Shown here piece by piece: positions 24,183 to 24,587 of a stretch of 64,000 nt of DNA. A program made the position numbers and the translations under genes. The stretch lies in the NCBI RefSeq assembly GCF_016026235.1, contig NZ_CP065613.1, one strand, 5' to 3'. A model generated the notes under the pieces. The model made no database searches, had not been told where the DNA came from, and saw nothing but the letters and a program-made list of their open reading frames with translations. Every line of letters starts with the position of its first letter. Position 1 is the stretch's first letter. Origin of the DNA: Escherichia coli (GTDB lineage: Bacteria > Pseudomonadota > Gammaproteobacteria > Enterobacterales > Enterobacteriaceae).

Positions 24183-24587
24183 ATGGCACTGCTGAATATT
24201 TTTGATATCGCCGGGTCGGCGTTAACTGCCCAGTCCCAGCGCCTGAACGTGGCGGCCAGTAATCTGGCAAATGCTGATAGCGTGACCGGTCCCGATGGAC
24301 AGCCATATCGGGCAAAACAGGTGGTATTCTAGGTTAACGCTGCACCAGGTGCTGCGACAGGCGGCGTAAAGGTTGCCGATGTTATAGAAAGTCAGGCCCC
24401 GGACAAACTGGTTTATGAACCGGGTAATCCGCTGGCGGATGCAAAGGGCTACGTAAAAATGCCGAACGTTGATGTCGTCGGGGAGATGGTTAACACCATG
24501 TCGGCGTCACGCAGCTATCAGGCCAATGTTGAAGTGCTCAACACGGTGAAAAGTATGATGCTGAAAACCCTTACGCTCGGTCAATAA
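24183..24587 (+). pseudogene. flgC: flgC (flagellar proximal rod protein) with in-frame amber stop at codon 50
   Basis: Translation from ATG 24183 is [49 protein letters not shown] then TAG at 24330-24332. The same frame continues as FlgC sequence to the native stop at 24585-24587. Confidence 0.85.

Follow-up and report, generated by a model that had tools for sequence, protein, structure and literature searches.

The flgC gene, which encodes the proximal rod protein FlgC, was interrupted by an in-frame amber codon at codon 50 in the 64-kb stretch of Escherichia coli DNA analysed here (the window), and we put at about 0.88 the probability that it is a genuine chromosomal nonsense pseudogene, which has become fixed in a single natural clone of E. 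coli and is of Dcm-site origin and recurrent. The amber is an ordinary lesion of an already known kind, and the identical allele is already annotated publicly as a pseudogene.

The flgC lesion and its surroundings

Translation of 24183-24587 (plus strand) gave the 134-codon FlgC frame in interrupted form (MALLN...RAKQVVF, stop, VNAAPG...TLTLGQ, stop), with TAG as codon 50 at 24330-24332 and the native TAA at 24585-24587. Orthology was assigned from the sequence match to E. coli flgC and from the gene order flgB-flgC-flgD, the same as in annotated references, and the restored FlgC aligned over residues 1-134 with Salmonella FlgC in the rod structures 7BIN, 7CGO, and 7E80. The preliminary description had placed flgC at these coordinates with an amber at codon 50, and both the translation and the gene order bore this out; the CAG-to-TAG change that it had proposed was recovered, in frame, by alignment to the flgC of BL21(DE3) (404/405 identical), the sole difference being a C-to-T change of base 148 of the gene (window 24330), which turned CAG (Gln50) into TAG with the frame kept and without any indel. 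At this base, T was found in the window and in four draft assemblies of the same clone (see below), and C was found in BL21, in E. coli FDAARGOS_943 (see below), and in every sampled wild-type allele. The window flgC contained no uninterrupted 134-codon frame with PF00460 and PF06429 in one polypeptide; TAG at codon 50 split these two rod motifs between separate ORFs, and the gene was therefore assigned as a pseudogene.

The ancestral sequence TTCCAGGTT and the window sequence TTCTAGGTT differed by C to T at the inner C of a CCWGG site: the ancestral context was TTC-CAG-GTT, in which the CAG of codon 50 started at the inner cytosine of CCAGG. CCWGG is the target of Dcm, which methylates the inner C at position 5; deamination of the methylated base gives thymine and hence a G:C-to-A:T transition, and an in-frame C-CAG-G yields TAG directly, as at the amber hotspots of lacI and lambda cI. 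The preliminary description had missed this Dcm context, along with the recurrence of the mutation in E. coli and Shigella and its existing pseudogene annotation. The features of the region were as follows:

24183..24587, plus strand: flgC pseudogene (proximal rod protein FlgC, wild type 134 codons), assigned from 404/405 identity to BL21 flgC and from the flanking flgB and flgD
24330..24332, plus strand: premature amber TAG at codon 50 (ancestral CAG, Gln50), from alignment to wild-type alleles
24329..24333, no strand: destroyed Dcm site, CTAGG (ancestral CCAGG), with the putatively methylated inner C at 24330, from sequence context; hotspot status from PMC13250602 and from Cherry 2018 as summarised in PMC9520237
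24183..24332, plus strand: residual N-terminal ORF of 49 aa with the Flg_bb_rod N-terminal motif only, from the ORF list and a PF00460 match
24459..24587, plus strand: residual C-terminal ORF of 42 aa from Met93 with the Flg_bbr_C motif (PF06429), expression putative, from the ORF list
23763..31054, plus strand: flgB to flgJ gene run, all intact but flgC, from ORFs and reference annotation
26485..26489, no strand: intact amber-prone Dcm site at flgE codon 390 (CAG; TAG in FDAARGOS_943), from sequence comparison
27098..27102, no strand: intact amber-prone Dcm site at flgF codon 186 (CAG; TAG in FDAARGOS_943, annotated there as 'internal stop'), from sequence comparison
26798..26809, plus strand: (TGGC)x3 tandem repeat in flgF, intact in the window, from sequence comparison

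The exact 49-aa FlgC product, which matched Pfam PF00460, was found in 422 blocks of public assemblies (322 contigs), and the 42-aa product with PF06429 was listed by gene callers in all carriers of the flgC amber.

The remaining genes of the cluster, flgN/M/A/B/D/E/F/G/H/I/J/K/L, had no internal stops (13/13) and encoded proteins of 138/97/219/138/231/401/251/260/232/365/313/547/317 aa, respectively, equal to the annotated reference lengths and in agreement with the earlier statement that the other genes of the cluster were full length. The genes flgBCDEFGHIJ form one operon. Multi-lesion decay of the Shigella/EIEC type was not seen within the 64-kb window, where flgC was the sole broken flg gene, and the IS elements of the window sat in a prophage remnant in mdtG, outside the flg genes. 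The breakpoint of this degraded prophage insertion in mdtG was at 8129/8130, window 1-8129 being not collinear with FDAARGOS_943; the prophage contained an IS3-family transposase (975-1814), a tape-measure fragment (1808-3076), IS21-family istA/istB (4112-5512 and 5664-6413), and a large serine recombinase (6561-8096) adjoining the junction. The trhO gene (9574-10680) was intact in the window and annotated as frameshifted in FDAARGOS_943 (L004 8061-9120), with an indel at window 9704. Some E. coli backgrounds harbored between flgL and rne a two-gene insert (L022 15353-16137 and L024 15353-16137), composed of a TacA1-family antitoxin gene and a GNAT acetyltransferase toxin-like gene, and the window was without it.

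Codon 52 of flgG (window 27625) was CTG (Leu) versus CCG (Pro) in the common allele, and the FlgG P52L protein was found on 70 contigs. P52L was considered as a second private lesion and ruled out: the same protein occurred on backgrounds 1-2% divergent with intact flgC, and on these matches it is a recurrent or shared polymorphism rather than a private one.

The clone, its sister strain, and the order of events

Four draft assemblies of the same clone, made from different samples, carried the amber: GCA_001907565.1 (20150/20150 identical to the window), GCA_012772235.1 (18783/18783 identical), GCA_002466675.1 (18507/18507 identical), and GCA_012772885.1, in which a 4-bp flgF deletion was the one difference in 21.5 kb; there the loss of one (TGGC) unit resulted in a frameshift and a 111-aa product. 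A sequencing error, which the preliminary description had offered as an alternative to a recent inactivation, is rejected because four independent same-clone assemblies share the amber over 18-21 kb. One unit of the flgF (TGGC)x3 repeat was also missing from two Shigella-like loci (L012 and L014), independently of GCA_012772885.1, which makes this a second, slippage-type recurrent flg lesion.

The clone was further marked by a private 79-bp deletion at 19614/19615 relative to BL21 and FDAARGOS_943. This deletion took the end of yceH, the single spacer base, and the initial 64 bases of yceM, resulting in an in-frame 497-aa YceH-YceM fusion ORF (18981-20474), and no microhomology was found at its junction. 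The fusion protein, labelled Escherichia coli, was found in 38 blocks and on 24 contigs, and the 24 contigs that were read displayed two gene layouts.

The nearest complete genome was that of E. coli FDAARGOS_943, which was collinear with window 8130-64000 and differed from it by 35 SNPs in about 55.9 kb, and by 12/20,150 sites over 20 kb (distances were taken from the MAFFT alignment, and ungapped matrices, with values around 1430, were discarded as indel-corrupted). FDAARGOS_943 had an intact flgC with CAG at codon 50, and outgroup polarisation assigned T at 24330 as derived in the window's clone; FDAARGOS_943 harbored derived lesions of its own, flgE Q390am and flgF Q186am (window 26486 and 27099; L002 8566 and 9179), each of which was a C-to-T change at the inner C of CCAGG. 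PGAP annotated the shortened flgE of FDAARGOS_943 as a normal 389-aa gene and its flgF as 'internal stop', and the exact FlgE 1-389 product was found on 28 contigs. Since the nearest relative retains CAG and T is derived by outgroup polarisation, the inactivation of flgC is, as judged from the alignment, recent and lineage-specific; the recent inactivation suggested earlier thus stands, FDAARGOS_943 keeping CAG and carrying different flg ambers.

Dcm-targeted bases, which made up 0.5% of positions, accounted for 6/35 SNPs between the window and FDAARGOS_943 (33-fold excess, p=2.7e-8), and all three of the three nonsense differences between the two were inner-C CCAGG events. This SNP spectrum suggests that Dcm has been active in the lineage and that the flgC cytosine would have been methylated. 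Two further differences from FDAARGOS_943, at window 55556 (lpoB) and 59232 (ndh region), gave the window CTAGG and CCAAG, respectively, in place of a Dcm site, and the lpoB codon at 55556 was CTA (Leu) versus CCA (Pro) in FDAARGOS_943.

With respect to the order of events, the amber is possibly the primary loss of motility, perhaps favoured by selection against flagellin expression. Alternatively, it would be a secondary neutral hit: motility would have been lost earlier in an ancestor shared with FDAARGOS_943, through a lesion outside the window (e.g., in flhDC or a fli gene), with Dcm sites being the first to show decay. We consider a secondary hit a substantial possibility, although one short of an even chance, and it bears on the order of events, not on the nature of the lesion. 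It is in line with the breakage of different flg genes in the sister lineages (flgC versus flgE plus flgF) and with the distribution of Dcm events, which affected 4/25 Dcm sites of the flg cluster versus 2/119 elsewhere (p=0.0086), as fits relaxed constraint; however, the same amber was the only cluster lesion in unrelated strains, no excess SNP density was seen in the flg cluster relative to the flanks between the window and FDAARGOS_943 (9 in 11.6 kb versus 26 in 44.3 kb), and positive selection for flagellar loss predicts the identical pattern. The Dcm-event excess in flg, together with the different genes broken, would thus point to either selection for flagellar loss or a constraint that was already relaxed.

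Predicted loss of flagella and suppression of the amber

FlgC was resolved over residues 1-134 in Salmonella basal-body/rod structures (96 chains in 16 entries, six per entry). In flagellar assembly, the absence of the rod means that no hook-basal body is completed, FlgM is not exported, and the inhibition of sigma-28 continues. In the present clone, translation would halt after residue 49/134, with the loss of the C-terminal two-thirds of this six-copy proximal rod subunit; the rod and the hook-basal body would stay incomplete, FlgM would be retained and keep sigma-28 inhibited, and the flagellin, motor, and chemotaxis genes would be off. The cell is predicted from the sequence to be non-flagellate, non-motile, and H-negative, and the earlier prediction of a non-flagellated host is a reasonable one. 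A polar effect of the flgC stop that lowers flgD-J expression is also possible, and a basal level of near-cognate readthrough at the UAG could produce trace amounts of intact FlgC.

The amber would be silent or leaky if a suppressor tRNA or near-cognate insertion of glutamine gave enough FlgC for flagella. Such a rescue would be helped by the small number of FlgC subunits per flagellum (six chains per entry, see above), by the restoration of wild-type protein upon glutamine insertion, and by the intact state of the remaining flg cluster, but we judge it improbable. Amber suppressors are, to our knowledge, rare in natural isolates, and no tRNA genes were found by ARAGORN in the 64-kb window, a result uninformative on the rest of the genome; moreover, PGAP scores the identical lesion as a pseudogene. 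As for purifying selection on the flg genes of the clone, one isolate (GCA_012772885.1) already had the flgF frameshift, and the window had no second lesion. This frameshift, of a sort expected once the system is dead, and the two further flg ambers of the sister lineage FDAARGOS_943 would point to an absence of selection for flagellar function, and the continued decay in the same clone makes suppression less likely.

Proposed Dcm-site origin, recurrence, and comparison with known systems

CCWGG is an accepted mutation hotspot in E. coli (PMC13250602), and the inner C of CCWGG displays an approximately 8-fold C-to-T rate, as measured over thousands of genomes of natural E. coli and Salmonella (Cherry 2018, as summarised in PMC9520237). 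In the mechanism proposed for flgC, Dcm would methylate the inner cytosine of CCAGG at C5, the 5-methylcytosine would spontaneously deaminate to thymine and leave a T:G mismatch, this mismatch would evade very-short-patch (Vsr) repair, and CTAGG (that is, TAG) would be fixed; because such a Dcm site is hypermutable, the identical amber would arise many times over in many E. coli and Shigella lineages.

The frequency of such ambers was compared between Dcm and non-Dcm contexts within the highly conserved FlgC and FlgG, by counting the public contigs with the exact product predicted for each CAG-to-TAG change. The five Dcm-context CAG codons gave 322, 331, 124, 452, and 57 truncated-product contigs, and the fifteen non-Dcm CAG codons gave 6-97 (medians 322 versus 37, about 8.7-fold; exact Mann-Whitney p=0.00026); in these counts, separate mutations and clones sampled more than once are not told apart, and part of the control matches are contig-end truncations without a real stop, so that the true Dcm/non-Dcm contrast would be if anything larger. 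Several Logan/ENA contigs ending at flgC nt 135 (L019-L021) mimicked a Q46 truncation without a stop codon and inflated the exact-match counts. Further predicted Dcm ambers were common as well, namely those at FlgD Q46 (602 contigs), FlgL Q54 (418 contigs), and FlgL Q82 (326 contigs). The about 8.7-fold contig excess matches the published 8-fold rate as summarised in PMC9520237.

The 15 amber carriers compared fell into at least 8 different haplotypes of flgC, told apart by SNPs as near to the amber as 14, 17, and 37 bases, and their flanks had as many as 497 differing sites in 20 kb. Upon T-to-C reversion, the haplotypes of L008, L005, and L006 each had a 100% match among the wild-type alleles of complete genomes, and the window haplotype was identical to the BL21/FDAARGOS allele; four amber haplotypes were thus each a single step from a different extant wild-type allele. 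By the haplotypes and by the Dcm/non-Dcm counts (see above), the flgC amber was recurrent and commoner than ambers at unmethylated sites. The lesion was rare: a 61-base exact context containing the amber was found in 4/5,415 complete E. coli genomes, and the window flgC had no 100% match among 5,425 complete RefSeq genomes of E. coli. The identical amber is present in the public genomes M217 (NZ_AP019189.1), IGC_RcoliRes_1.1 (NZ_CP054662.1), strain 163 (NZ_CP048371.1), and NZ_CM151386.1. PGAP annotated an 'internal stop' in the flgC of M217 and IGC_RcoliRes_1.1, in which flgN to flgH were otherwise intact; the two inspected amber genomes were from one mouse commensal (Portugal) and one human isolate (Myanmar). 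The carriers also included records under the names Shigella sonnei and S. dysenteriae 155-74. A literature search on flgC with Dcm, amber, or non-motility found no paper that singled out flgC codon 50.

A single ancient amber allele, identical by descent and spread vertically or by homologous recombination, is a very unlikely source of these carriers. E. coli does recombine, L006 and L010 shared identical flgC-proximal sequence, and Shigella lineages were among the carriers; however, the eight flgC haplotypes differed at positions as close as 14-37 bases from the amber, four of them were one step from four different wild-type alleles, the closest relative of the window was without the amber, and the non-Dcm controls were about 8-fold rarer, as is predicted by neither descent nor recombination.

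The idea that the flg genes evolved as 'fragile' targets was tried and rejected: by a frame heuristic, 20/22 of the Dcm sites in flg genes were amber-prone, as were 45/107 of those elsewhere (p=1.7e-5), and this difference was gone with true annotations. The CAG codons in CCAGG context then made up 9.5% in flg versus 6.2% in the other window genes (p=0.17), both fractions being near the approximately 10% expected from neighbouring-base frequencies, and the excess of amber-prone sites in flg was due to Gln-rich proteins (8.0% versus 4.1% Gln). The C-CTG-G Dcm contexts were fewer in the flg genes (22159-33728), with 2/164 CTG codons versus 47/761 elsewhere (p=0.0065, post hoc), and this depletion may reflect chance or neighbouring-codon composition. 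It is also hardly credible that Dcm sites prone to amber mutation, flgC codon 50 being one, would serve as a crude reversible flagellation switch, turned off by deamination and preferentially on via Vsr. Vsr is described, in PMC2715241 citing Doiron et al. 1996, as stimulating CTAGG-to-CCAGG mutation, and populations with such a switch would gain and lose flagella more rapidly than by ordinary point mutation; no CTAGG-to-CCAGG reversion event was observed, and clone-mates go on decaying.

An artefact, in which Nanopore miscalls at Dcm-methylated CCWGG give a false CTAGG, may be practically dismissed. The window lesion is located precisely in CCWGG, the motif of Nanopore discrepancies, and approximately 95% of the E. 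coli positions at which ONT and Illumina disagree lie in CC(A/T)GG (PMC6703438). The motif and the apparent base change are shared between these Nanopore errors (PMC6703438) and the flgC lesion, but the flgC variant, unlike them, was reproduced in independent fragmented, short-read-style assemblies and is therefore taken as biological. T was not missing from the short-read assemblies of the clone, being reproduced in all four independent same-clone drafts on otherwise identical sequence, and carriers of the amber were overwhelmingly on fragmented contigs (only 13/422 blocks exceeded 0.2 Mb), many of which had SPAdes/MEGAHIT-style names, with Logan contigs as well. The 49-aa product was annotated also in Shigella records EGI97969.1 and EIQ30278.1, which we take from their accession series to date from about 2011-2012, i.e., to be pre-Nanopore. 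Recoding of TAG (as selenocysteine or pyrrolysine) was set aside as implausible in E. coli.

For annotation, the window flg cluster contains a flgC pseudogene, and typing of the clone is predicted to give a non-motile (H-negative) result. In E. coli/Shigella flagellar genes, the commonest nonsense alleles are predictable from sequence, as they arise where an in-frame CAG or TGG codon lies within CCWGG; these amber-prone sites are homoplasic and may mislead SNP phylogenies, and, CCWGG being also a Nanopore error hotspot, short-read confirmation is needed case by case. The current understanding of Dcm mutagenesis and of flagellar assembly is unchanged by the flgC finding.

CCAGG amber hotspots were reportedly described in lacI and lambda cI am6 by Coulondre, Miller, Farabaugh, and Gilbert in 1978 and by Lieb in 1991. 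These hotspots and flgC share C to T at the inner Dcm cytosine of CCAGG, which changes an in-frame CAG (Gln) to TAG, and Vsr repair counteracts the change only partly, as would hold for flgC; they are laboratory reporters, whereas flgC is a chromosomal flagellar structural gene of wild isolates, with the amber fixed in a clone. Compared to the genome-wide rate of Cherry 2018, as summarised in PMC9520237, flgC is a single-site case with a predicted phenotype. Flagellar loss in Shigella by flg, flh, and fli pseudogenes is described in PMC4445032, which lists the flagellar ORFs of Shigella dysenteriae. In such Shigella/enteroinvasive E. coli decay, the Shigella-like L012 and L014 shared the flgC amber of the window and had many other flg lesions, while in the window flgC was the one damaged gene of the cluster, and the clone was labelled E. 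coli. The public flgC Q50 ambers shared the base change and the 49-aa product of the window but lay on different genetic backgrounds, and they are therefore considered to be of independent origin.
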